In this document: piece by piece, positions 4,494 through 34,573 of the stretch
Layout of the letters: the number at the start of each line of letters is the position of its first letter
Position numbering within the stretch: position 1 is the first letter of the stretch
From: Escherichia coli
GTDB lineage: Bacteria > Pseudomonadota > Gammaproteobacteria > Enterobacterales > Enterobacteriaceae
Assembly (NCBI RefSeq): GCF_003018255.1
Contig: NZ_CP027440.1
Reading direction: 5' to 3' (one strand)
DNA length: 64,000 nt
Notes under the pieces: model-generated
The model's database searches: none
Told to the model about the DNA's origin: nothing
What the model saw: only the letters and a program-made list of their open reading frames with translations
Program-made: the position numbers and the translations under genes

Positions 4494-6149
4494 TTACTTC
4501 TGTAACCACCAGACAGCCTCAAAAGGCCGTAAAGTCATGGCACAGGGTTGTGGTGAGGCTTCTTCGTAGTTATGCATCACAAGCTGCCAGTTGCCGAGCA
4601 TTTTCCCTGGCTGCCAGGGTTGGGTCTCACGGCTAAGGTTGGCAATGACCAGTAAGGTTTGCCCCTTCCACTCACGGCGATAGCACCACAATACAGGGCT
4701 GTTTGGCAGCAGATCCTGGTAATCGCCCCATGTCAGGACGGCTTCTTGCTTACGCAGTGCGATTAACTTTTGGTAGGTGTAAAACACCGAGGACTCATCG
4801 GCCAGCGCTGCTTCTACGTTGATTTCCTGATAGTTATCGCCCAGGCCAATCCACGGTTCGCCAGCCGTAAACCCGGCATTATCGCCGTTGCTCCATTGCA
4901 TGGGTGTGCGACTGTTGTCACGGGATTTACTGGCGAGGATTGCCAATAACTCGTCGGCATCACGACCATCGTTGCGCAGCTCGGCAAACATATTGAGGCT
5001 CTCCACGTCGCGATAGTCAGTAATGCGCGTGAAATGCGGGTTGGTCATGCCAATCTCTTCGCCCTGGTAGATATACGGCGTTCCCTGCATGCCATGCAGC
5101 ACCATCGCCAGCATTTTTGCCGCAGGCACGCGGTATTCACCTTCATCACCAAAGCGAGAAACAATGCGCGGCTGATCGTGGTTACACCAGAACAAGGCAT
5201 TCCATGCCACGTTGTGCATTCCTTGTTGCCAGTGGCGGAACAATGTTTTCAACGCCACAAAGTCAGGTTTAGCCAGCGTCCATTTTTCACCACTGGGATA
5301 ATCGACTTTCAGGTGATGAAAATTAAAGGTCATCGACAATTCACTGCCTGTCAGTGTCGCATATCGCTGGCAATGCTCAAGGCTGGTGGAGGACATTTCA
5401 CCTACGGTCATTAACCTGCGTGGCGTAAACACATCGCGGTTCATCTCGTGCAAAAACTCGTGTGCTCGTGGCCCGTCGGTGTAGAAGCGACGCCCGTCGC
5501 CATCCAGGTCATCAGGGAAACGCGGGTCTTTGGAGATCAGATTCACCACATCCAGGCGCAACCCGTCGACCCCACGATCGGCCCAGAACTCACAGACTTT
5601 TTTCAGCTCTGCGCGTACCGCTGGATTCTCCCAGTTGAGATCCGCCTGTTCTGGTGCAAAGAGATGCAAATAGTACTGTTCGCTTTCCGCATGCCAGCGC
5701 CACGCACTACCGCCAAATTTTGAACGCCAGTTGTTCGGTGGCGTTTCTGATTCTCCATCGCGCCAGATATAAAACTGGCGGTAAGGGCTTGCTTTGTTCA
5801 GCGCCTCGCGAAACCAGGCATGTTGGGTAGAGGTATGGTTAAACACCATATCGAGAATGATACGAATCCCGCGCGATTTTGCCTGTGTCACCAGTTCGTC
5901 AAAATCGTCCAGCGTGCCGTAGGTGGGATCAATAGCCGTATAGTTCGCTACGTCGTAACCGTTATCAACCTGGGGAGAGACATAAAAGGGGGTTAGCCAG
6001 ATGGCATCAACGCCCAGTTTATGCAGATAGTCCAGGCGCTGGATAACGCCACGTAAATCGCCGGTGCCGCTACCCGTGGTGTCCTGAAAACTCTTTGGAT
6101 AAATCTGGTAGATAACGCCGTTTTGCCACCAGTGGGGAAGATTAGTCAT
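4494..6149 (-). CDS. treC: Trehalose-6-phosphate hydrolase
   Basis: ORF trimmed to internal ATG giving MTNLPHWWQNGVIYQ N-terminus (551 aa); GH13 motifs. Confidence 0.93.
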   Translation of the reverse strand: MTNLPHWWQNGVIYQIYPKSFQDTTGSGTGDLRGVIQRLDYLHKLGVDAIWLTPFYVSPQVDNGYDVANYTAIDPTYGTLDDFDELVTQAKSRGIRIILDMVFNHTSTQHAWFREALNKASPYRQFYIWRDGESETPPNNWRSKFGGSAWRWHAESEQYYLHLFAPEQADLNWENPAVRAELKKVCEFWADRGVDGLRLDVVNLISKDPRFPDDLDGDGRRFYTDGPRAHEFLHEMNRDVFTPRRLMTVGEMSSTSLEHCQRYATLTGSELSMTFNFHHLKVDYPSGEKWTLAKPDFVALKTLFRHWQQGMHNVAWNALFWCNHDQPRIVSRFGDEGEYRVPAAKMLAMVLHGMQGTPYIYQGEEIGMTNPHFTRITDYRDVESLNMFAELRNDGRDADELLAILASKSRDNSRTPMQWSNGDNAGFTAGEPWIGLGDNYQEINVEAALADESSVFYTYQKLIALRKQEAVLTWGDYQDLLPNSPVLWCYRREWKGQTLLVIANLSRETQPWQPGKMLGNWQLVMHNYEEASPQPCAMTLRPFEAVWWLQK

Positions 6150-6198
6150 TACGTTATTCCTGCAAATGCGAGGGGGCGCAATTGCGCCCCGAAGAAAA

Positions 6199-7620
6199 TT
6201 AAACAATGTCCAGCGTGCCCAGGCGGTATTTCCGCTGATAGATAAACGAGGTGAGTACAATCGGGATGATGATGGCGATAGCCATTGCCAGCGCAAACAC
6301 CTGCCAGTAGCTCGGTTGAATCGAGAGAATTCCCGGCAGGCCGCCTACGCCGATGCCATTCGCCATAACGCCGTTCAGGCCGCATAGCAATCCTGCCAGA
6401 CCAGAACCAATCATCGCGCACAGCATCGGGAAGCGATATTTCAGGTTGATGCCGTACATAGCAGGCTCAGTGACTCCAAGCCAGGCGGAGATAGCGGCAG
6501 GCACGGAGATCTCGCGTTCATTGTGCTTGCGGCTGGAAATGATAATGCCTATCACGGCGGAACCCTGAGCGATATTCGACAGCGCAATCAGCGGCCACAC
6601 TGGCGTACCACCCATGCTTTGAATCATCTGCAAATCAATAGCAAGCGTGGTCTGATGTACGCCGGTGATCACCAGCGGGGCGTACAGGAAGCCAAACAAT
6701 GCCGCGCCAATCGGAGCAAAGCTGCCGGTCATCAGGTGACGTACCGCAAAGGCAACGCCATCGCCAATCATGCGACCAAACGGACCAATCAGCGCATGGG
6801 CGAGGAACACCGCGAGGATCAGCGAACAAACGGGCACCACCACCAGATAGAGGTAATCCGGCACGATGCGCTTAAGACGAGTTTCAATAACGCCCAGCGC
6901 CAGCCCGGCTAACAGTGCCGGGATCACCTGCGCCTGATAGCCCACTTTGGCGATGCTGAACATGCCAAAGTCCCACACTTCCGGCAGCTGCTGCCCGAGC
7001 AGATAAGCGTTCATCAGCTGTGGAGAAACCAGCGTTACGCCAAGCACGATACCAAGGATCGGCGTGCCGCCCATTTTTTTCACCGCTGACCAGCAAATCC
7101 CGACCGGCAGGTAGAAGAAGATCGCTTCACCGATCAACCACAGAAAATCGTAGATCGTTTGCAGGGAAGGGTACATTTGCGCCAGCGTTTGACCGTTGCT
7201 CATGGGCAAATCGCCGATCACATTGCGAAAACCGAGGATCAAACCGCCGCTAATCAACGCGGGCAGCAACGGGAAGAAAATCTCCGCGAAATGAGAGATC
7301 AACTGCTCATGCCATTTCATATTCTGCCGGGCGGCTTTTTTTACCTGCTCTTTATCAACCTGCGCCTGTCCGGTTGACGCTATCAGTGCTTGATAGTAAT
7401 CACCCACGTTGGTGCCAATCACCACCTGAAATTGCCCGGCATTGGTGAAACAGCCTTTCACCATGGGGAGTTGCTCAATTTCTTTCGGTCTGGCATTGGC
7501 CGGTTGGTTGAGGACAAAGCGCAGACGAGTAATACAGTGGCTCACCGTCGCAATATTGCCGCGCCCGCCGACCAGTTCAATCAACCGATCGATATCCGTT
7601 TGGTTTATTTTGCTCATCAT
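6199..7620 (-). CDS. treB: PTS trehalose-specific EIIBC component
   Basis: 473 aa membrane protein, PTS EIIB cysteine motif region; tre operon synteny. Confidence 0.93.
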   Translation of the reverse strand: MMSKINQTDIDRLIELVGGRGNIATVSHCITRLRFVLNQPANARPKEIEQLPMVKGCFTNAGQFQVVIGTNVGDYYQALIASTGQAQVDKEQVKKAARQNMKWHEQLISHFAEIFFPLLPALISGGLILGFRNVIGDLPMSNGQTLAQMYPSLQTIYDFLWLIGEAIFFYLPVGICWSAVKKMGGTPILGIVLGVTLVSPQLMNAYLLGQQLPEVWDFGMFSIAKVGYQAQVIPALLAGLALGVIETRLKRIVPDYLYLVVVPVCSLILAVFLAHALIGPFGRMIGDGVAFAVRHLMTGSFAPIGAALFGFLYAPLVITGVHQTTLAIDLQMIQSMGGTPVWPLIALSNIAQGSAVIGIIISSRKHNEREISVPAAISAWLGVTEPAMYGINLKYRFPMLCAMIGSGLAGLLCGLNGVMANGIGVGGLPGILSIQPSYWQVFALAMAIAIIIPIVLTSFIYQRKYRLGTLDIV

Positions 7621-7739
7621 AAAGCCCCATGGCAGATGACATTTTTGGTTGGCTGCAGAATATATTGCGCTGAAAAATTTAAAAAACGGGAACGTTCCCG
7701 AAACGCAGCGAAGATCACAATTTATCGTTCAGGAAACGA

Positions 7740-8687
7740 TCAGGACAGGGTGGCGGGAATGATGATTTGTTGCGGTTCGCTGCGCCCGGTTACCTGCGCG
7801 ATCAACTGGCAGGCCGCCTGGCGTCCAGCTTCGGCGTAACCGGGATCTACGGTGACGATCTCCGGATGGAGGAATTTCATTAACGGCGTATTACCGACGC
7901 TCGCCAGTTGCAAGGTGTCGATGCGTTGCTCTTGCAGGTATTTACTTGCGCCAAGTGCCAGCGTGTCGGTTGCGCACAGTAACGCGGTAGTTTCAGGCGT
8001 AATCACTTTTGCTACGTTCTCATAGCCTTGCTTCATAGCAAGCCCTGGCAGAGCGGCAACGGGATGCAATTTATGCGCTTTGCAGAACGCCAGGTAGGCT
8101 TCGTGACGTCGCTTACCGGTCGTCACGTCACTGTGCGGCACGCCGAGATAACTGATATTACGATGTCCCTGGTCATACAGCCGTTGCATCAGGATCTTGA
8201 TTGCCCCTTCGTCGTCATAACAGACCGAAGCAAAGCCTTTTGCGTCACGCGCCAGCAGAACCAGCGATGACTGCCAGTGGGCTAACATTTCTTCTGTTAT
8301 GCCGGTAAAACCGAACAGCACTACGCCGTCGATATTACGCCGTTTCAGCACCCCCAAATGTTCGGCAACTAATTGTGGGGAAAACTGACTTTCCATCATG
8401 ATTGGATCGTAACCTTGTTCATAGAACGCTGGCAGCATGGTTTGAACGGCGAGATTTTCTGACAACGAATCCAGACGGGTAACAATGATGGCGACCACTT
8501 TATCGCTTTGCCCACGCATAGCGCGCGCAGAGCGGGAAGGGGAAAATCCATGCTGATTCATCACTGCTTCAACACGCTCGCGCGTGCGCTGGCTCACGCC
8601 GCTTTCGTTATTCAGCACCCGGGAAACCGTAGATTTCCCCACGCCGCTTAAGCGCGCGATGTCTTTGATGGTCAGCCGATTTTGCAT
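7740..8687 (-). CDS. treR: Trehalose operon repressor (LacI family)
   Basis: 315 aa, N-terminal LacI-type HTH (TIKDIARLSGVGKSTVSRVLNN). Confidence 0.93.
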   Translation of the reverse strand: MQNRLTIKDIARLSGVGKSTVSRVLNNESGVSQRTRERVEAVMNQHGFSPSRSARAMRGQSDKVVAIIVTRLDSLSENLAVQTMLPAFYEQGYDPIMMESQFSPQLVAEHLGVLKRRNIDGVVLFGFTGITEEMLAHWQSSLVLLARDAKGFASVCYDDEGAIKILMQRLYDQGHRNISYLGVPHSDVTTGKRRHEAYLAFCKAHKLHPVAALPGLAMKQGYENVAKVITPETTALLCATDTLALGASKYLQEQRIDTLQLASVGNTPLMKFLHPEIVTVDPGYAEAGRQAACQLIAQVTGRSEPQQIIIPATLS

Positions 8688-8759
8688 CCTGTTGTCCCAT
8701 AACGTGTTGTTTAATTATTTGAGCCTAACTTTACCTGTGCATTCAGCAATGGGTAAAGT

Positions 8760-9065
8760 CTGGTTTATCGTTGGTTTAGTTGCCAGCAGGTATTATATCG
8801 CCATAAATGCTACGAATATTATTGGATTCTCCTTATTATTTGCGGCGCTTTTTTCACTTACCGGAGGTTATATGGAACCTGATCCCACGCCTCTCCCTCG
8901 ACGGAGATTAAAACTTTTCCGGTAAGCCCGTCTTTTCACGGCGTTACCGGATGCGTAAGGCCGTGACGTTTTAACGTCCCTGCTCAGCTTTATTACCTTC
9001 AGGTAAGGCTTCGCCACGCCTGAAGACATTTCTGTACTGTTTCAGACAGTGCGGAGGGACTCCTT
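8760..9065 (+). promoter_or_regulatory. mgtA 5' leader region (Mg2+/proline-responsive leader containing mgtL)
   Basis: Long untranslated region between treR and mgtA containing the Pro-rich mgtL mini-ORF; established K-12 regulation. Confidence 0.6.
8872..8925 (+). CDS. mgtL: mgtA leader peptide ([17 protein letters not shown])
   Basis: 17-codon proline-rich ORF at 8872-8925 upstream of mgtA. Confidence 0.7.
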
Positions 9066-11762
9066 ATGTTTAAAGAAATTTTTACCCGGTTCATTCGCCA
9101 TTTACCTTCCCGTCTGGTTCATCGCGATCCATTGCCTGGCGCGCAGCAGACAGTGAATACGGCGGTCCCGCCGTCCTTAAGTGCGCATTGCCTGAAAATG
9201 GCGGTGATGCCCGAAGAAGAATTGTGGAAAACGTTCGACACCCATCCGGAAGGATTAAATCAGGCGGAAGTGGAATCTGCCCGCGAACAACATGGTGAAA
9301 ATAAATTACCCGCACAACAACCGTCGCCGTGGTGGGTTCATTTATGGGTCTGCTATCGCAACCCCTTTAATATTTTACTCACCATTCTCGGCGCTATTTC
9401 TTACGCCACGGAAGATTTATTTGCCGCGGGCGTTATCGCGCTAATGGTCGCTATTTCTACGTTGCTGAACTTTATTCAGGAAGCACGTTCCACTAAAGCG
9501 GCAGATGCCCTGAAAGCGATGGTCAGCAATACTGCGACGGTGCTGCGCGTAATTAACGACAAAGGCGAAAATGGCTGGCTGGAGATCCCGATCGACCAAC
9601 TGGTGCCCGGCGATATTATAAAACTGGCGGCAGGGGATATGATCCCGGCAGATTTACGTATCTTGCAGGCGCGGGATCTGTTCGTCGCTCAGGCGTCGTT
9701 AACCGGTGAGTCTCTGCCCGTGGAAAAAGCCGCTACTACTCGCCAGCCGGAGCACAGCAATCCGCTGGAGTGCGACACCCTGTGTTTTATGGGCACCACC
9801 GTGGTGAGCGGTACGGCACAAGCAATGGTGATTGCCACAGGGGCCAATACCTGGTTTGGTCAACTGGCGGGGCGTGTTAGTGAGCAGGAAAGCGAGCCGA
9901 ATGCCTTTCAGCAAGGGATTAGCCGCGTCAGTATGCTGCTGATTCGCTTTATGCTGGTGATGGCTCCGGTGGTGTTGCTTATCAACGGTTACACCAAAGG
10001 CGACTGGTGGGAAGCGGCACTGTTTGCGCTTTCGGTCGCGGTAGGCTTAACGCCAGAAATGTTGCCGATGATTGTTACCTCGACGCTGGCGCGCGGCGCA
10101 GTAAAGCTGTCGAAACAGAAAGTGATCGTCAAACATCTGGATGCCATTCAGAACTTTGGCGCAATGGATATTCTGTGCACTGATAAAACCGGCACCCTGA
10201 CGCAGGACAAAATTGTGCTGGAGAATCATACCGATATCTCCGGTAAAACCAGCGAACGCGTGCTGCATAGCGCGTGGTTGAACAGTCATTACCAGACCGG
10301 ACTTAAAAACCTGCTTGATACCGCGGTGCTCGAAGGTACGGATGAAGAGTCAGCGCGTTCGCTGGCCAGCCGTTGGCAAAAAATTGATGAGATTCCGTTT
10401 GATTTCGAGCGTCGTCGGATGTCGGTGGTAGTGGCAGAAAATACCGAACACCATCAGCTGGTTTGCAAAGGTGCATTGCAGGAAATCCTCAATGTGTGTT
10501 CGCAGGTGCGTCACAATGGCGAGATTGTGCCGCTCGATGACATCATGCTGCGTAAGATTAAGCGGGTTACTGATACGCTGAATCGTCAGGGGCTGCGCGT
10601 GGTTGCGGTGGCGACGAAATACCTGCCAGCGCGTGAAGGAGATTACCAGCGGGCGGATGAATCCGACCTGATCCTCGAAGGATATATTGCTTTCCTTGAT
10701 CCGCCAAAAGAGACAACCGCTCCGGCACTGAAGGCATTAAAAGCGAGTGGAATTACCGTAAAAATCCTTACTGGCGACAGTGAGTTAGTTGCAGCGAAAG
10801 TGTGCCATGAAGTGGGGCTGGATGCGGGAGAGGTGGTCATTGGTAGTGATATTGAAACGCTATCTGACGATGAACTGGCAAATCTCGCACAGCGCACCAC
10901 GCTGTTTGCCCGCCTGACGCCGATGCATAAAGAACGCATTGTGACCTTACTGAAGCGCGAAGGGCATGTGGTTGGCTTTATGGGCGATGGTATTAATGAT
11001 GCGCCCGCCTTACGCGCTGCGGATATCGGCATTTCTGTGGACGGCGCGGTAGATATTGCCCGTGAAGCGGCTGATATCATCCTGCTGGAAAAAAGCCTGA
11101 TGGTGCTGGAAGAGGGGGTTATTGAGGGACGTCGCACTTTCGCCAACATGCTGAAATACATCAAAATGACGGCGAGTTCTAACTTCGGTAATGTGTTCAG
11201 CGTGCTGGTGGCGAGTGCTTTCTTGCCCTTCCTGCCGATGTTGCCGTTACACTTGCTTATTCAGAACTTGCTGTACGATGTGTCACAGGTGGCGATCCCG
11301 TTTGATAACGTCGACGACGAGCAAATTCAAAAGCCGCAGCGTTGGAATCCGGCGGATCTGGGGCGCTTTATGATCTTCTTCGGACCGATCAGCTCGATCT
11401 TCGATATTCTGACGTTTTGCCTGATGTGGTGGGTATTCCATGCCAACACGCCGGAAACGCAAACGCTGTTCCAGTCGGGCTGGTTTGTGGTGGGCTTACT
11501 GTCGCAAACGCTGATTGTGCATATGATCCGTACCCGTCGTGTACCGTTTATTCAGAGCTGTGCATCGTGGCCGTTAATGATCATGACCGTGATCGTGATG
11601 ATTGTCGGGATCGCATTGCCGTTTTCACCGCTGGCCAGTTATCTGCAGCTGCAGGCGCTGCCGTTAAGCTATTTCCCGTGGCTGGTTGCGATTCTGGCAG
11701 GGTATATGACGTTAACCCAGTTGGTGAAAGGGGTCTATAGCCGTCGTTACGGCTGGCAGTAA
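9066..11762 (+). CDS. mgtA: Mg2+-importing P-type ATPase
   Basis: 898 aa; DKTGTLT phosphorylation motif and GDGINDAPAL motif present. Confidence 0.95.
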   Translation: MFKEIFTRFIRHLPSRLVHRDPLPGAQQTVNTAVPPSLSAHCLKMAVMPEEELWKTFDTHPEGLNQAEVESAREQHGENKLPAQQPSPWWVHLWVCYRNPFNILLTILGAISYATEDLFAAGVIALMVAISTLLNFIQEARSTKAADALKAMVSNTATVLRVINDKGENGWLEIPIDQLVPGDIIKLAAGDMIPADLRILQARDLFVAQASLTGESLPVEKAATTRQPEHSNPLECDTLCFMGTTVVSGTAQAMVIATGANTWFGQLAGRVSEQESEPNAFQQGISRVSMLLIRFMLVMAPVVLLINGYTKGDWWEAALFALSVAVGLTPEMLPMIVTSTLARGAVKLSKQKVIVKHLDAIQNFGAMDILCTDKTGTLTQDKIVLENHTDISGKTSERVLHSAWLNSHYQTGLKNLLDTAVLEGTDEESARSLASRWQKIDEIPFDFERRRMSVVVAENTEHHQLVCKGALQEILNVCSQVRHNGEIVPLDDIMLRKIKRVTDTLNRQGLRVVAVATKYLPAREGDYQRADESDLILEGYIAFLDPPKETTAPALKALKASGITVKILTGDSELVAAKVCHEVGLDAGEVVIGSDIETLSDDELANLAQRTTLFARLTPMHKERIVTLLKREGHVVGFMGDGINDAPALRAADIGISVDGAVDIAREAADIILLEKSLMVLEEGVIEGRRTFANMLKYIKMTASSNFGNVFSVLVASAFLPFLPMLPLHLLIQNLLYDVSQVAIPFDNVDDEQIQKPQRWNPADLGRFMIFFGPISSIFDILTFCLMWWVFHANTPETQTLFQSGWFVVGLLSQTLIVHMIRTRRVPFIQSCASWPLMIMTVIVMIVGIALPFSPLASYLQLQALPLSYFPWLVAILAGYMTLTQLVKGVYSRRYGWQ

Positions 11763-25663: not shown

Positions 25664-27178
<1,515 letters not shown>

Positions 27179-27441
27179 CTACGCTCCTGAATCTTAAAGA
27201 CAACGGCGGTGGCTACAGATAGAATTGCAAGCTTTCGTAACTCATGTCCGCTGTTGCGATGACTTCGTGTTAATCTTAACGTTATTACGGCATTGGCACG
27301 TCAGAACAAAATCTGAGAGGTGAATCCGTTGAGTATAATTATCTTAGCGACGATTTCGACGACTCAAGAGAATAAATGACGTTTAAGCCATGAAACAAGC
27401 TAAAATCCTGCAAAAGACGAGTTTTTACGGGCGTATTTAAA

Positions 27442-28542
27442 GTGATAATCATAAGATATCTGGTGCGGGAGACGCTCAAAAGCCAGCTGGCGATACTCTT
27501 CATCTTGCTTTTGATCTTCTTCTGTCAAAAGTTAGTGAGGATCCTCGGCGCAGCGGTTGACGGCGATATTCCGGCGAATCTGGTGCTCTCCCTTCTCGGG
27601 TTGGGCGTGCCGGAAATGGCGCAGCTTATCCTGCCATTAAGCCTGTTCCTCGGGCTGCTGATGACGCTGGGCAAACTGTATACCGAAAGTGAAATTACGG
27701 TAATGCATGCCTGCGGCCTGAGCAAAGCGGTTCTGGTGAAAGCGGCAATGATCCTTGCGGTATTCACGGCAATCGTCGCGGCGGTTAACGTGATGTGGGC
27801 GGGACCGTGGTCATCGCGTCATCAGGATGAAGTGTTAGCAGAAGCGAAAGCGAACCCTGGCATGGCGGCGCTGGCGCAAGGGCAATTCCAGCAAGCGACT
27901 AATGGCAGCTCGGTGCTGTTCATCGAAAGCGTTGACGGCAGCGATTTCAAAGATGTGTTCCTCGCGCAAATTCGACCAAAAGGTAATGCACGTCCTTCTG
28001 TGGTGGTGGCCGATTCCGGACATTTAACCCAGCTGCGCGACGGCTCCCAGGTCGTCACTCTCAACCAGGGAACGCGCTTCGAAGGCACTGCACTGTTACG
28101 TGATTTCCGCATTACGGACTTCCAGGATTATCAGGCGATCATTGGTCACCAGGCGGTGGCGCTCGACCCGAACGATACCGACCAGATGGACATGCGCACA
28201 TTGTGGAACACTGACACCGATCGTGCCCGTGCAGAACTGAACTGGCGTATCACGTTGGTATTCACCGTGTTTATGATGGCACTTATGGTCGTACCGCTGA
28301 GCGTGGTTAACCCGCGTCAGGGACGCGTACTGTCGATGCTGCCAGCCATGCTGCTGTATCTACTTTTCTTCCTGATCCAGACCTCCCTGAAATCGAACGG
28401 CGGTAAAGGTAAGCTGGACCCGACGCTGTGGATGTGGACCGTTAACCTGATTTATCTGGCTTTGGCGATTGTTCTCAACCTTTGGGACACCGTGCCGGTC
28501 CGCCGCCTGCGCGCCAGTTTTTCGCGTAAAGGAGCGGTGTGA
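27442..28542 (+). CDS. lptF: LPS export ABC permease LptF
   Basis: 366 aa, multi-TM; overlaps lptG start by 4 nt. Confidence 0.95.
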   Translation: MIIIRYLVRETLKSQLAILFILLLIFFCQKLVRILGAAVDGDIPANLVLSLLGLGVPEMAQLILPLSLFLGLLMTLGKLYTESEITVMHACGLSKAVLVKAAMILAVFTAIVAAVNVMWAGPWSSRHQDEVLAEAKANPGMAALAQGQFQQATNGSSVLFIESVDGSDFKDVFLAQIRPKGNARPSVVVADSGHLTQLRDGSQVVTLNQGTRFEGTALLRDFRITDFQDYQAIIGHQAVALDPNDTDQMDMRTLWNTDTDRARAELNWRITLVFTVFMMALMVVPLSVVNPRQGRVLSMLPAMLLYLLFFLIQTSLKSNGGKGKLDPTLWMWTVNLIYLALAIVLNLWDTVPVRRLRASFSRKGAV

Positions 28543-29624
28543 TGCAACCTTTTGGCGTACTTGACCGCTATATCGGTAAAACTATTTTCACCACCATCAT
28601 GATGACGCTGTTCATGCTGGTGTCGCTGTCGGGCATTATCAAGTTTGTCGATCAGCTGAAAAAAGCCGGGCAGGGGAGTTACGACGCGTTAGGCGCAGGA
28701 ATGTATACCTTGCTGAGCGTGCCGAAAGATGTGCAAATCTTCTTCCCGATGGCGGCTCTGCTTGGGGCGTTGCTTGGTCTTGGGATGCTGGCGCAGCGCA
28801 GCGAACTGGTGGTGATGCAGGCTTCTGGTTTTACCCGTATGCAGGTAGCGCTGTCGGTGATGAAAACCGCCATTCCACTGGTCTTGCTGACGATGGCGAT
28901 TGGCGAATGGGTCGCGCCGCAGGGCGAGCAGATGGCGCGTAACTACCGTGCGCAGGCGATGTACGGCGGCTCGTTGCTCTCTACCCAGCAAGGCTTATGG
29001 GCGAAAGATGGCAACAACTTCGTCTACATTGAGCGGGTTAAAGGTGACGAGGAGTTAGGTGGCATCAGTATTTATGCCTTTAACGAGAATCGTCGTCTGC
29101 AATCCGTACGTTATGCCGCTACCGCGAAGTTTGACCCGGAACATAAAGTCTGGCGTCTGTCGCAGGTTGATGAATCTGACCTGACCAATCCGAAACAGAT
29201 TACCGGTTCGCAGACGGTGAGCGGCACCTGGAAAACCAACCTCACGCCAGACAAACTGGGCGTGGTGGCGCTGGACCCGGATGCACTCTCCATCAGTGGT
29301 TTGCACAACTACGTGAAGTATCTGAAGTCGAGCGGTCAGGATGCCGGACGTTATCAGCTCAACATGTGGAGCAAAATCTTCCAGCCGCTATCCGTGGCGG
29401 TGATGATGCTGATGGCGCTGTCGTTCATCTTTGGCCCACTGCGTAGCGTACCGATGGGCGTGCGTGTGGTCACCGGTATCAGCTTCGGTTTTGTCTTCTA
29501 CGTACTGGACCAGATCTTCGGCCCGCTGACGTTGGTTTATGGCATCCCGCCGATCATCGGCGCACTGTTGCCAAGCGCCAGCTTCTTCTTAATCAGCCTG
29601 TGGCTGTTAATGAGAAAATCGTAA
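28539..29624 (+). CDS. lptG: LPS export ABC permease LptG
   Basis: 361 aa, multi-TM, operon with lptF. Confidence 0.95.
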   Translation: MMQPFGVLDRYIGKTIFTTIMMTLFMLVSLSGIIKFVDQLKKAGQGSYDALGAGMYTLLSVPKDVQIFFPMAALLGALLGLGMLAQRSELVVMQASGFTRMQVALSVMKTAIPLVLLTMAIGEWVAPQGEQMARNYRAQAMYGGSLLSTQQGLWAKDGNNFVYIERVKGDEELGGISIYAFNENRRLQSVRYAATAKFDPEHKVWRLSQVDESDLTNPKQITGSQTVSGTWKTNLTPDKLGVVALDPDALSISGLHNYVKYLKSSGQDAGRYQLNMWSKIFQPLSVAVMMLMALSFIFGPLRSVPMGVRVVTGISFGFVFYVLDQIFGPLTLVYGIPPIIGALLPSASFFLISLWLLMRKS

Positions 29625-29630
29625 TCTAAC

Positions 29631-29660
29631 AAGGGAGCGAAAGCTCCCTTTATTATTGTT
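29631..29660 (+). terminator. Rho-independent terminator after lptG
   Basis: aagggagc gaaa gctccctt followed by tattattgtt. Confidence 0.6.
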
Positions 29661-29688
29661 GACAAAGTCAAATACGAGTTCGAACGGT

Positions 29689-29725
29689 CCCCTCGCCCCT
29701 TTGGGGAGAGGGTTAGGGTGAGGGG
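29689..29725. repeat. Intergenic palindromic repeat element (copy 2)
   Basis: cccctcgcccctttggggagagggttagggtgagggg; shares 21-nt core with copy at 25631-25651. Confidence 0.45.
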
Positions 29726-29742
29726 CACAGATCACGTCTGAC

Positions 29743-31245
29743 TTATCTTTTTCTCCCCCCCAGCAAACTCCCCAACATCCCGCGTACAATCTGATTCGTC
29801 ACCTGGCGAGCGGCGCTTTTCGCCATTGTTTGCACCACACCATCTTTCTTCCCGCCGCGTGGTCCGGTAGTGCCAAACAAAATATCCTTCAATCCACCAA
29901 GAATACCGTCATCCACCGCCACCTCTTTCCCTTTCACGGGGGGATTATTTTGCTGCTCGGTACTGGCCTGAAAGCCTTTTTGCAGCATCTCATAGGCGGA
30001 CTCGCGGTCCACCTCATCTTCATATTTGCCATACACCGGGGAGTGATTAATCAGGCCATTACGCTCATCTTCCGTCACCGGCCCCATTCGCGAACAAGGT
30101 GCGATCACCATCGCCCGTTCCACCACAGAAGGACTCCCTTTTGCATCGAGAAACGAGATTAACGCCTCGCCGGTCCCCAGTTCCTGGATTGCCTTTTCGG
30201 TATCAAATGCCGGATTGGCCCGCATGGTTTGCGCCGCAGCTTTTACTGCTTTCTGATCTTTGGGCGTAAAAGCCCGCAAAGCGTGTTGAACACGATTACC
30301 GAGCTGCCCGAGCACATTATCCGGAATATCAGACGGGTTTTGCGAAACGAACCAGACGCCCACGCCTTTTGAGCGAATAAGCCTTATCACCTGCTCAATC
30401 TTATCCAGCAGTACCTGAGGCGCATCGTTAAACAGCAGATGTGCTTCGTCGAAGAAAAACACCAGTTTTGGTTTCTCCAGATCGCCCGCTTCAGGCAATT
30501 GTTCATATAACTCTGAAAGCATCCACGGCAGGCTGGCGGCGTACAGTTTCGGCATCTGATAAAGTTTCTCGGCGCTGAGGATATTGATAACGCCTTTACC
30601 GTTGGCATCGGTGCGCATCCAGTCTTTGATATCCAGCATCGGCTCACCAAAGAAGTGTGCTGCGCCTTGCTGTTCCAGCGACAGTAATCCGCGCTGGATG
30701 GCACCAACCGATGCGCTACTGATATTTCCGTACTGATTCTGGAAGGATTTGGCGTTATCGCCGATGTACTGGGTAATCGCCCGCAAATCTTTAAAGTCGA
30801 GCAGCAACAATCCCTGATCGTCCGCAATGCGGAAGATAATATTCAGCACGCCAGATTGCACATCGTTGAGATTCAACAGTCGCGCCAGCAACAGCGGCCC
30901 CAGATCCGAAACCGTCGCCCGCACCGGGTGGCCTTTCTCGCCAAAGATATCCCACACCACCACCGGATTAGCATGAGGTTGCCAGTCATTTACGCCGATA
31001 TTTTTAAGCCTTGCGAGCAGTTTTTCCGAAGAAGTACCTTCCTCCGCTACTCCCGTTAAATCACCTTTCACATCGGCCATAAACACCGGCACGCCGATTT
31101 CAGATAGAGACTCTGCCAGTTTTTGCAGCGTAACGGTTTTACCCGTCCCCGTTGCGCCAGTAATCAGCCCGTGACGATTCGCCATTCCCGGCAATAAAAA
31201 CAGTTCTGTGTCCGACGTGCGGGCAATTAACAGGGGTTCGCTCAT
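29743..31245 (-). CDS. yjgR: DUF853-family P-loop NTPase YjgR
   Basis: Trimmed to [12 protein letters not shown] start (500 aa); Walker A GATGTGKT. Confidence 0.85.
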
Positions 31246-31374
31246 GAGATATCCTCCAGTTTCCTGCCTGGAGTATAGGCAACGGCTGCGCACTCTTCAC
31301 CGCTAAATTCAGCAGATTGCGAGACGCCTTCCAAAGAGATTTAAACGCCGGGCGACAGGCACCCGGCAAAGGGA

Positions 31375-32394
31375 TCAGAAGTCGGCTTTCAGAACCACGC
31401 GGTAGCGCGCTTTACCATCGCGTACATGCTGGATAGCGTCGTTAATTTTCGACATCGGGAACAGTTCGGTAGTCGGCGCAACCTTGCTGCGGGCGGCAAA
31501 GCGCATCAGCTTACGCAGCTCATAAGGCGTGCCGGTAGCAGAACCAGAGACGCTGCGGTCGCCCGCAATTAACGTAAAGGCCGGAACAGACAGCGGCGTG
31601 AGAACCGCACCGACCGTATGGAAATTACCGCCATACGTCAGCGCCTCAAAATAAGGCTGCCAGTCGAGGCTGACGTTGACGGTGTTGATAATGAGATCAA
31701 ACTGCCCCGCCAGTGCTTTGAGTGCCTGCGGATCGCGGCTATTCACCACTTTATCGGCACCCATCGCCAGTACTTCCTGCTCTTTCGCCGGATTAGAACT
31801 AAAGGCTGTCACCTCGCATCCCATTGCGTGCAGAAGTTTTATAGCGATATGCCCCAGCCCGCCAATACCAATCACGCCGACGCGGCTGGTGGCAGTGATA
31901 TGGTGCATCAACAGTGGTTTAAAGACCGTGATACCGCCGCACAACAGCGGCCCAGCAGATTCAATGTCGATATTTTCTGGCAGTGGGATTACCCATTGCC
32001 AGTCCGCACGCAACTTCTCGGCAAAACCGCCGCGATTCAAAATCGTCGGCACCGCACCTTGCTCGCAGTTGATCTGATTACCGCTAATACAGGCGTCGCA
32101 GTGACCACAGCTACGCGCCGTCCAGCCAATCCCGACACGCTGACCGACCTGCAAACCTTTATCCTGCGCGGCGCTACCCAATGCAACCACGCGCCCAATC
32201 ACCTCATGCCCGGCAACCAGCGGATACTGTGAAAATCCCCATTCGTTGTCGATCATCGACAGATCGGAATGGCAGATCCCGCAGTAATCCACCTGAACTT
32301 CAACATCTTGTGGCTTCAGTTCACCGGGATCGTACTCATAAACTTCCAGTTCGCCGCCAGCCTCTTTTGCGGCATAACTTTTTATCATCGACAT
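31375..32394 (-). CDS. ahr: NADPH-dependent aldehyde reductase Ahr (YjgB), Zn-dependent ADH family
   Basis: Trimmed to [18 protein letters not shown] start (339 aa); GHEVIG and GIGGLG motifs. Confidence 0.9.
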
Positions 32395-32589
32395 GTTTTT
32401 ATCCTTCTCTGGTGTGGTCTGGGAAGTGTAGAGCATGGCAGGGCGGGGCGCCTGGAGTGTGACAAAGGTTACACATCGCGGTATGCAATGCTGAAAATTT
32501 CAGCACTTAGCGAGGTGCGAGCAAGCTGGCGCTTGCATGGTGGCGTGCGACAGGTATAATCCACAACGTTTTCCGCATACCTCTTCAGT

Positions 32590-32674
32590 GCCGAAGTGGC
32601 GAAATCGGTAGACGCAGTTGATTCAAAATCAACCGTAGAAATACGTGCCGGTTCGAGTCCGGCCTTCGGCACCA
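32590..32674 (+). tRNA. leuX: tRNA-Leu (anticodon CAA)
   Basis: 85-nt sequence GCCGAAGTGGCGAAATCGGTAGACGCAGTTGATTCAAAATCAACC...GGTTCGAGTCCGGCCTTCGGCACCA with cloverleaf arms and encoded CCA. Confidence 0.95.
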
Positions 32675-32896
32675 AGTGATGCAATAATTAGCTACCTAAG
32701 GGTGGCTTTTTTTGTGTCCATTTCCGTCCAAATTCGTCCATATCCGTTTGTAATTCAAAGGTAATTTATTTTTCCACAATAACCATATTTATTTTGTGGT
32801 CTTTCCGTGTTGGTCATTTTTCATCCATTGACATCCACGCGATTTGGGGGCCAAATTGGGGGCTTAGACGTAGTTCGATAATAGTGAGGCCCCCAA

Positions 32897-34573
32897 ATGG
32901 CACTAACAGATCGCGCTATAGTCCACGCCAAGCCTTGTGGCAAGCCGTATAAGCTCAGTGACTCGCATGGACTTTACCTGCTGGTTAACCCTAACGGTTC
33001 AAAACGCTGGTACATCAAGTACCGCTTTGTAAACAAAGAGAAAAAGCTCGCTTTAGGCCCTTATCCGCTTTTGACGCTTGCACAGGCAAGACGCATGCGT
33101 GAAGAGGCACAATTATTGCTGATTTCCGGCATCGATCCGAGTGCACGCCGAAAAGCAGAACGCCTTGCGATAACGCCGGAACATACGTTTGAGTCTGTGG
33201 CACGTGAATGGGTCACCAGTAACGTGAACTGGTCGGCGGAACATAAGAAGCGGGTGCTGCGTTATTTCGAGCTTTACGTATTCCCCACGAACGGCAGCTG
33301 TGACATCACCAAAATGAAGGTCAAAGATCTGCTGGTGCCCATCAAGGAAGTGGAGAAAGCGGGCAAACTGGATGTTGCTTCCCGGCTTCAGCAGCGCACT
33401 GCCTGCGTGATGCGCTACGCCGTCCAGAACGGCATTATCGATCATAACCCTGCATCAGATTTAACCGGCGCGGTCTCCACGCCCAAAGTACGGCATCACC
33501 CGGCGTTGGATCTGAATCTTATCCCTGATTTCCTGGAAAGAATCGACGATTACAAAGGCCGTCAACTGACTCAACTGGCGGTAAAACTGGCACTGCTGCT
33601 GTTTATCCGCTCCAGCGAACTGCGCTTTGCCCGCTGGGATGAAATTGATCTGCGTAACGCCATGTGGACCATCCCCGCTGAGCGTGAGCCGATCCCCGGC
33701 GTTAAATATTCAGCGCGTGGGGCGAAGATGCACTCCCCACACCTGGTCCCATTGTCACGTCAGGCCATCGAACTGCTGCACGAGGTGCGGCAGCATTGCC
33801 GACCGGGAACTGAACTGGTGTTCCCCGGCGATCACAATTACCGCAAGCCGATGAGTGAAAACACCATCAACAAAGCGCTGCGGGTGATGGGCTACGACAC
33901 CCAGAAAGATGTCTGTGGCCACGGTTTTCGCACTATGGCCTGTAGCGCGCTGGTGGAGTCGGGGCTGTGGTCAAGCGACGCGGTAGAGCGCCAGATGAGC
34001 CATCAGGAGCGCAAGCGCGTGCGTGCGGCGTATATCCACAAGGCGCAGCATCTCGAAGAACGTTGGGAGATGATGCAGTGGTGGGCGGATTATCTGGATG
34101 CAAACCGGTTCAGGCATGTTGTGCCGTATGGCTTCAAAAAGTCGCCGGGAGGCGCACTCGACCATATGAGTTTCCAGGAGCGCAATGACCGGCAGCTAGA
34201 GGAGCTGAAAGCCAGAATACTGGCTGACTCGGAATGGCTGACGGCGTCTGAATTATCCGCAAAAGCGGGCTTTCGTTCCGCCGATCCTGATGCTGGTCCG
34301 AAAGGCTGGAAAGCCGCCGGGAAGATATTCTCGCTGAAGGTCGATGGTGAGGATTTATACCCTGATTATGTTCTGGATGAGAAAATGCGGCCTCTCAAGG
34401 TTGTCCGTTTGATTCTTTCACTGTTTAAGGAGCGTAAAACACCGTGGGGGCTGGCTATCTGGTTTGGCTCGGCTAATCGCAGGTTGAGAGGTGGGAGGCC
34501 GAAAGACCTGCTGATTTCGAAGTCAGAGTTGGTTCTGATGGCGGCGCAGGAGGAGGTGGAGTCGGGGGAGTAG
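32897..34573 (+). CDS. P4-type tyrosine integrase with ~150-aa C-terminal extension
   Basis: 558 aa; N-terminal arm-binding region, catalytic HGFR and Tyr (AAYIH) region at ~aa 350-375; extension ends in a GGRPKDLL-type motif. Confidence 0.85.
   Translation: MALTDRAIVHAKPCGKPYKLSDSHGLYLLVNPNGSKRWYIKYRFVNKEKKLALGPYPLLTLAQARRMREEAQLLLISGIDPSARRKAERLAITPEHTFESVAREWVTSNVNWSAEHKKRVLRYFELYVFPTNGSCDITKMKVKDLLVPIKEVEKAGKLDVASRLQQRTACVMRYAVQNGIIDHNPASDLTGAVSTPKVRHHPALDLNLIPDFLERIDDYKGRQLTQLAVKLALLLFIRSSELRFARWDEIDLRNAMWTIPAEREPIPGVKYSARGAKMHSPHLVPLSRQAIELLHEVRQHCRPGTELVFPGDHNYRKPMSENTINKALRVMGYDTQKDVCGHGFRTMACSALVESGLWSSDAVERQMSHQERKRVRAAYIHKAQHLEERWEMMQWWADYLDANRFRHVVPYGFKKSPGGALDHMSFQERNDRQLEELKARILADSEWLTASELSAKAGFRSADPDAGPKGWKAAGKIFSLKVDGEDLYPDYVLDEKMRPLKVVRLILSLFKERKTPWGLAIWFGSANRRLRGGRPKDLLISKSELVLMAAQEEVESGE

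Follow-up and report, generated by a model that had tools for sequence, protein, structure and literature searches.

The yjgR–ahr interval without idn genes: the majority form of an accessory metabolic locus in Escherichia coli

In Escherichia coli K-12 MG1655, the region of the GntII or L-idonate subsidiary gluconate system, yjgR and ahr–leuX included, is found at positions 4,488,561–4,496,489 of NC_000913.3, where the annotated gene order is yjgR-idnR-idnT-idnO-idnD-idnK-ahr-leuX. In published pangenome studies, idn is already counted among the accessory genes. One scan lists idnO, idnD, idnR, idnK and idnT for 83% of pks-positive E. coli and for about 31% of those that are pks-negative (PMC8545132). 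The gene idnK is reported missing from ST131 H30 and H22 strains but present in H41 (PMC5369007), and genes for the degradation of L-idonate are enriched in part of the STEC (PMC4216125). Outside the species, Salmonella Typhi is without idnDOTK and fails to grow on L-idonate (PMC6138749). Here we analyzed one 64-kb stretch of E. coli DNA, called the window throughout, in which yjgR and ahr are direct neighbors. A preliminary description of this DNA had placed the idn genes between yjgR and ahr in K-12, had named idn a known type of variable region and had suggested that the strain lacks the cluster. The K-12 order given there proved to be the annotated one, K-12 has five idn genes between yjgR and ahr rather than a direct adjacency, and the variability of idn is borne out by the studies cited above. 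The idn-less form of the interval is hence an instance of already documented accessory-locus variation, and the finding is correct but ordinary.

The window and K-12 have the backbone order pepA, lptF, lptG, yjgR, ahr, leuX in common, with pepA, lptF and lptG lying beyond yjgR on the side away from ahr. In the window, yjgR extends from 29743 to 31245 on the minus strand according to the list of open reading frames, with its start codon (CAT on the plus strand) at 31243–31245, and encodes a HerA-like C-terminal/DUF853 P-loop protein. The 500-aa product gives 836.9 bits against Pfam HerA_C (the former DUF853) and 98.8% amino acid identity to K-12 YjgR, the same-strand orthologue that flanks the interval there; the match to this gene carries the yjgR annotation in thousands of RefSeq genomes. 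The gene for the NADPH-dependent aldehyde reductase Ahr is found at 31375–32394, also on the minus strand, and was assigned with the NCBIfam AldhRedAhr equivalog, against which the product scores 553.5 bits, above the cut-off of 470 bits. It is 99.4% identical over its 339 aa to K-12 Ahr, again the same-strand orthologue at the edge of the interval. The ahr stop codon (TCA on the plus strand) is at 31375–31377, and the mechanical open reading frame runs on to 32436. By these matches, the identities of yjgR and ahr are secure. To the right follows leuX, a tRNA-Leu(CAA) at 32590–32674 on the plus strand (ARAGORN; Rfam tRNA, 59.4 bits), in a K-12-like position relative to ahr. It forms the right edge of the conserved backbone, after which a strain-specific island begins. 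The genes yjgR and ahr are thus arranged tail-to-head on the minus strand, and the start and stop codon coordinates put the spacer between them at exactly 129 bp (31246–31374), in agreement with the roughly 130 bp given in the preliminary description. No gene-sized open reading frame of the window falls into this spacer.

When the window was aligned with the K-12 locus by blastn, as the preliminary description had proposed, we obtained three colinear blocks, and homology was broken at the yjgR–ahr interval, the place of the five idn genes in K-12. The blocks cover 26001–29668 (pepA–lptG, 98.2% nucleotide identity), 29727–31284 (yjgR, 94.4%) and 31375–32675 (ahr–leuX, 96.2%). The left break lies 39 bp upstream of the yjgR start codon (31284/31285), and the right break lies exactly at the ahr stop codon (31375). 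Between them, the 90 bp at 31285–31374 find no counterpart at the K-12 locus even when the word size is lowered to 7 bases, and stand in place of 5,087 bp of K-12 sequence (6104–11190 of the K-12 locus record). The difference between the window and K-12 is therefore a replacement and neither a clean insertion nor a clean deletion. A tblastn search of the 64-kb window with the five K-12 Idn proteins returned no orthologue, only unrelated paralogues at 21–33% identity, which confirms for this stretch that the idn cluster is absent. The surroundings of the two flanking genes change accordingly. In K-12, idnK and ahr are convergent, their stop codons 3 bp apart, and yjgR comes after the idnDOTR operon with idnR nearest, whereas in the window the 129-bp spacer follows ahr and yjgR lies downstream of ahr. 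Because of this arrangement, the transcriptional context of yjgR and ahr should differ between the idn-less and the idn-carrying form.

The 129-bp spacer consists of two parts. The 39 bp at 31246–31284, directly upstream of yjgR, belong to both forms: their edge is set by the blastn boundary, and in the idn-carrying genomes listed the homology boundary likewise falls at query position 185, which is window position 31284. This part is also conserved in E. albertii, C. werkmanii and Citrobacter sp. FP75. Read directly from the sequence, it holds the yjgR Shine-Dalgarno motif GGAGGA within an inverted repeat, CTCCAG-N8-CTGGAG, and a TATACT hexamer resembling a −10 element in the yjgR sense. A promoter scan of the minus strand of the spacer gave no sigma-70 promoter for yjgR, only this TATACT with a poor −35. 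The inverted repeat around the Shine-Dalgarno motif is kept in K-12, E. albertii and both Citrobacter loci, and it could be a translation-control hairpin for yjgR. The remaining 90 bp (31285–31374), which take the place of idnR-idnT-idnO-idnD-idnK and have no K-12 match, are specific to the idn-less form and have homologous counterparts in E. albertii and Citrobacter werkmanii. Within them, a terminator scan and folding located a terminator-like hairpin followed by a U-rich tail at 31333–31367 on the minus strand. Starting 8 nt past the ahr stop codon, the hairpin consists of a G+C-rich stem of 8 bp (GCCGGGUG/CGCCCGGC) and a 5-nt loop; the scan match itself is at 31364–31343 on the minus strand. 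The stem is found in both the minimum free energy and the centroid fold, while the whole 81-nt fold, with z = −1.24, is not unusual compared with shuffled sequences. In C. werkmanii a hairpin occupies the corresponding position, with a partly different sequence. We take this element as the predicted terminator of ahr, a call based on consensus and fold prediction. An Rfam search at E≤1 over 29600–32800 matched only the tRNA and no RNA family in the spacer.

How common this arrangement is was counted among 5,426 complete RefSeq E. coli genomes, where a window-type junction was scored when a single place covered at least 80% of a 421-bp query. The idn-less junction was found in 3,213 genomes (59%) at 93–99.5% identity to the query, and a 3-kb query gave 3,212. 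The idn block is present in 2,055 genomes (38%), and in a further 160 (3%) the 3′ end of ahr is missing; the three classes sum to 5,426 within two. The idn-less form is thus the majority state of E. coli, and K-12 belongs to the 38% minority. Among the idn carriers, 2,052 of the 2,055 have the K-12 yjgR–idnR junction and 2,051 the K-12 idnK–ahr junction, and therefore idn is essentially never located elsewhere in the genome. Examples without idn are O157:H7, O145:H28, the type strain ATCC 11775 and JNE23-011, and examples with idn are K-12, a B-strain derivative, ABU 83972, an ST95 strain and SMS-3-5, so that the distribution looks patchy among well-known lineages. The architecture of the window, with its 129-bp spacer and hairpin after ahr, is identical to that of other idn-less E. 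coli and of E. albertii NBRC 107761. The yjgR–ahr allele of the window is, however, relatively divergent. Over the 3-kb segment it is 94–95% identical to most E. coli, and even JNE23-011, otherwise near-identical, reaches no more than 97.7%; the 421-bp junction of M7424 matches at 99.5%. In one strain of the ahr-truncated class, 20KM2228, a deletion with one end within the idn-less spacer and the other in ahr has left a pseudogene fragment of 236 bp (record positions 7144–7669). The three frequencies together with the fixed junctions may serve as a reference when this locus is typed.

From these data we consider it very probable that the window contains the natural, common and old idn-less form of the yjgR–ahr interval, in which the GntII cluster (idnK; idnD-idnO-idnT-idnR) is missing neither through a recent deletion nor through an assembly error. 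A recent deletion of idn, specific to this strain, from an idn-carrying ancestor is conceivable in so far as deletions do happen at the locus, where about 160 genomes such as 20KM2228 are without the ahr 3′ end, and idn loss in Salmonella Typhi has been treated as adaptive gene loss (PMC6138749). The 90 bp at 31285–31374, however, have no counterpart in the idn-carrying form, and therefore a simple deletion of idn cannot yield this spacer. The same spacer moreover occurs in 3,213 E. coli genomes, in E. albertii and in C. werkmanii, and the nearest relatives, JNE23-011 and JNE112863, are idn-less too, so that we judge a recent deletion to be highly improbable. That the adjacency arose as an assembly artefact, or that idn sits elsewhere in the genome, is an idea to which we attach almost no credence. 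It draws on the fact that only the 64-kb window is visible and on the public record of strain MLI104K2, which has a corrupted, homopolymer-ridden sequence at exactly the yjgR–ahr interval. The junction in the window, by contrast, is clean, its flanking open reading frames are intact, and it is matched in thousands of independent complete genomes. As to a relocated cluster, 2,051–2,052 of the 2,055 carriers hold idn at yjgR–ahr with both K-12 junctions and relocation is essentially unknown; it is from this population pattern that we infer that the genome beyond the visible 64 kb is without idn as well.

The MLI104K2 record (NZ_CP116925.1) was also considered as an intermediate of idn decay, which would have made the idn-less spacer a leftover of the idn genes. 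Its 928-bp homopolymer-rich interval (record positions 7395–8322), in which a ‘hypothetical protein’ is annotated, holds idnR and idnT fragments at about 88% identity beside idn-less spacer sequence. We rejected it as an intermediate in view of its long G, C and A homopolymers and an arrangement that is unique among the 5,426 genomes; the interval almost certainly goes back to a local failure of assembly or polishing. With this record set aside, an 11-nt likeness of the window spacer (GCGAGACGCCT) to the idnT 5′ end is best explained by chance.

Beyond E. coli, a YjgR scan with one genome per species gave Budvicia, Yersinia, distant taxa and five Enterobacteriaceae loci that have a yjgR–ahr interval, one from Escherichia, two from Citrobacter and two from Enterobacter. 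In E. albertii NBRC 107761 and in Citrobacter werkmanii, ahr adjoins yjgR with spacers of 129 bp and 136 bp, respectively, and both spacers align with that of the window over the whole length, the hairpin position included. Citrobacter sp. FP75, on the other hand, has the order ahr-idnK-idnD-idnO-idnT-idnR-yjgR, with a left junction homologous to that of K-12 and a right junction unlike it. Different again from the window, Enterobacter cloacae DSM 26481 and Enterobacter sp. Ag1 each carry one gene of the Dak1/Dak2 dihydroxyacetone-kinase family between ahr and yjgR; the two domains were assigned on the E. cloacae protein. The Enterobacter gene encodes a protein of 548–579 aa (record positions 8125–10000 in E. 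cloacae and 8192–10000 in Ag1). Because of this different content in Enterobacter, the ahr–yjgR interval can be said to hold different cargo by genus. Since both the empty and the idn-carrying arrangement are found in Escherichia and in Citrobacter, both either predate E. coli or have passed from one genus to another. This sharing across genera makes the locus a modest case of gene-content polymorphism at a fixed slot without a mobile element.

Which of the two arrangements came first can be approached through base composition. The G+C content of the idn block is 47.3% (43.4% for idnK), compared with 53.6% for the pepA–yjgR flank and 55.6% for ahr. This lower G+C content, together with an intact terminator-bearing spacer in three species, speaks for the view that the empty arrangement may be the original one and that idn may have been acquired by insertion. 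The polarity is weakened by the fact that the idn arrangement crosses genera with a divergence of the Idn proteins (80–96% identity between FP75 and K-12) similar to that of the flanking proteins (91–94%).

The preliminary description had spoken of an idn island. The composition of the block fits this term, as its G+C content is lower than that of its flanks, but the other marks of an island are missing. The K-12 annotation contains no integrase, transposase or IS element between yjgR and ahr, only the five idn genes, and at the block boundaries we found no direct repeats or microhomology beyond a single 9-mer, CCGGCAAAG. This 9-mer stands directly after the left boundary in K-12 and again at the last bases of the idn-less spacer, with a chance expectation of about 0.01 by a rough estimate. 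It hints that the idn block may have entered beside the ahr stop codon with a loss of 77 bp of the spacer, and it is too short to build on. The gene leuX and its integrase lie beyond ahr and are part of a separate island.

Because the idn block is without mobility functions and its boundaries are fixed in about 2,050 genomes, we infer that homologous recombination through the flanking genes is the simplest route between the two forms. The forms would be switched by crossovers in yjgR or lptG on one side and in ahr or leuX on the other, with a donor of the other form. A comparison of the window with JNE23-011 gives direct evidence of such a process at this place. Upstream, 21.7 kb show 99.7% identity, and beyond leuX 24.3 kb of the island (32700–57000) are reported as 100.0% identical. 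In the match covering 29738–57581, 68 of the 74 differences fall within about 29.5–32.2 kb, that is, in yjgR, the spacer and most of ahr, and from 31000 to 32200 their density reaches about 4.6%. This cluster at 29500–32200, beside leuX, looks like a short imported recombination tract. It joins two idn-less strains, and what is seen is thus the recombination process and no actual switch of form. A second cluster of 37 differences to JNE23-011 lies at 9000–10500 of the window, in the mgtL/5′ mgtA region of that strain, and is probably another recombination tract.

One may speculate, at well below even confidence, that yjgR–ahr is a slot fixed in its place and variable in its cargo. The empty spacer, with its terminator, and the idn block would have coexisted there since ancient times, with the dak kinase gene of Enterobacter as a third form; the first two, common to Escherichia and Citrobacter, would be swapped through recombination in the flanks and may be kept by niche-dependent selection on L-idonate use over drift. 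The related explanation that the forms are more than neutral variants of gain and loss, namely a long-lived polymorphism of the Enterobacteriaceae, maintained by such niche-dependent selection and crossing genera by descent or by recombination between genera, is likewise possible but doubtful to us. It agrees with the homologous junctions of both forms in Escherichia and Citrobacter, with their intermediate frequencies in E. coli (59% and 38%), with the tie between idn presence and particular pathotypes in published pangenome scans and with host-dependent fitness effects of idnD in Salmonella. Yet the sample contains one Citrobacter genome per form, the right junction of FP75 differs from that of K-12, and the association with pathotypes may merely mirror clonal structure.

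The GntII pathway is established knowledge, and this is the basis for the phenotype that we expect for the strain. Without IdnD, IdnO and IdnT it would be unable to use L-idonate or 5-keto-D-gluconate by this route, and it would lack the IdnK gluconokinase; the use of gluconate through GntI would be unaffected. We predict negative growth on L-idonate and 5-ketogluconate because the idn genes are absent and because Salmonella Typhi provides a precedent. The result matters little beyond the annotation itself, as it concerns an accessory metabolic capacity already known to differ between E. coli lineages and between Salmonella serovars.

Two neighboring features of the window deserve a short description. 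The island after leuX, which covers 32700–57000 and beyond, starts with an open reading frame for a P4-type integrase (32897–34573, 558 aa), whose domains Arm-DNA-bind_3, Phage_int_M and Phage_integrase end near residue 384; in JNE23-011, the gene that occupies this place after leuX bears the annotation of a pseudogene with a truncated C terminus. According to the JNE23-011 annotation, the island contains an AbiEi/AbiEii toxin–antitoxin pair, a MobH relaxase, ArdC, TraG and other genes of integrating conjugative elements, as well as a tyrosine invertase, a chaperone-usher fimbrial operon and ParB-like genes. Coverage of the island reaches 80% or more in only 6 of the 5,426 genomes, and 100.0% identity is reported only for JNE23-011 and JNE112863. 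On the other side of yjgR, the lptG–yjgR intergenic region (29669–29726) carries a G+C-rich palindromic repeat (cccctcgcccctttggggagagggttagggtgagggg) that has no aligned counterpart in K-12, where 91 different bases stand instead, and that looks like a small enterobacterial intergenic repeat element.
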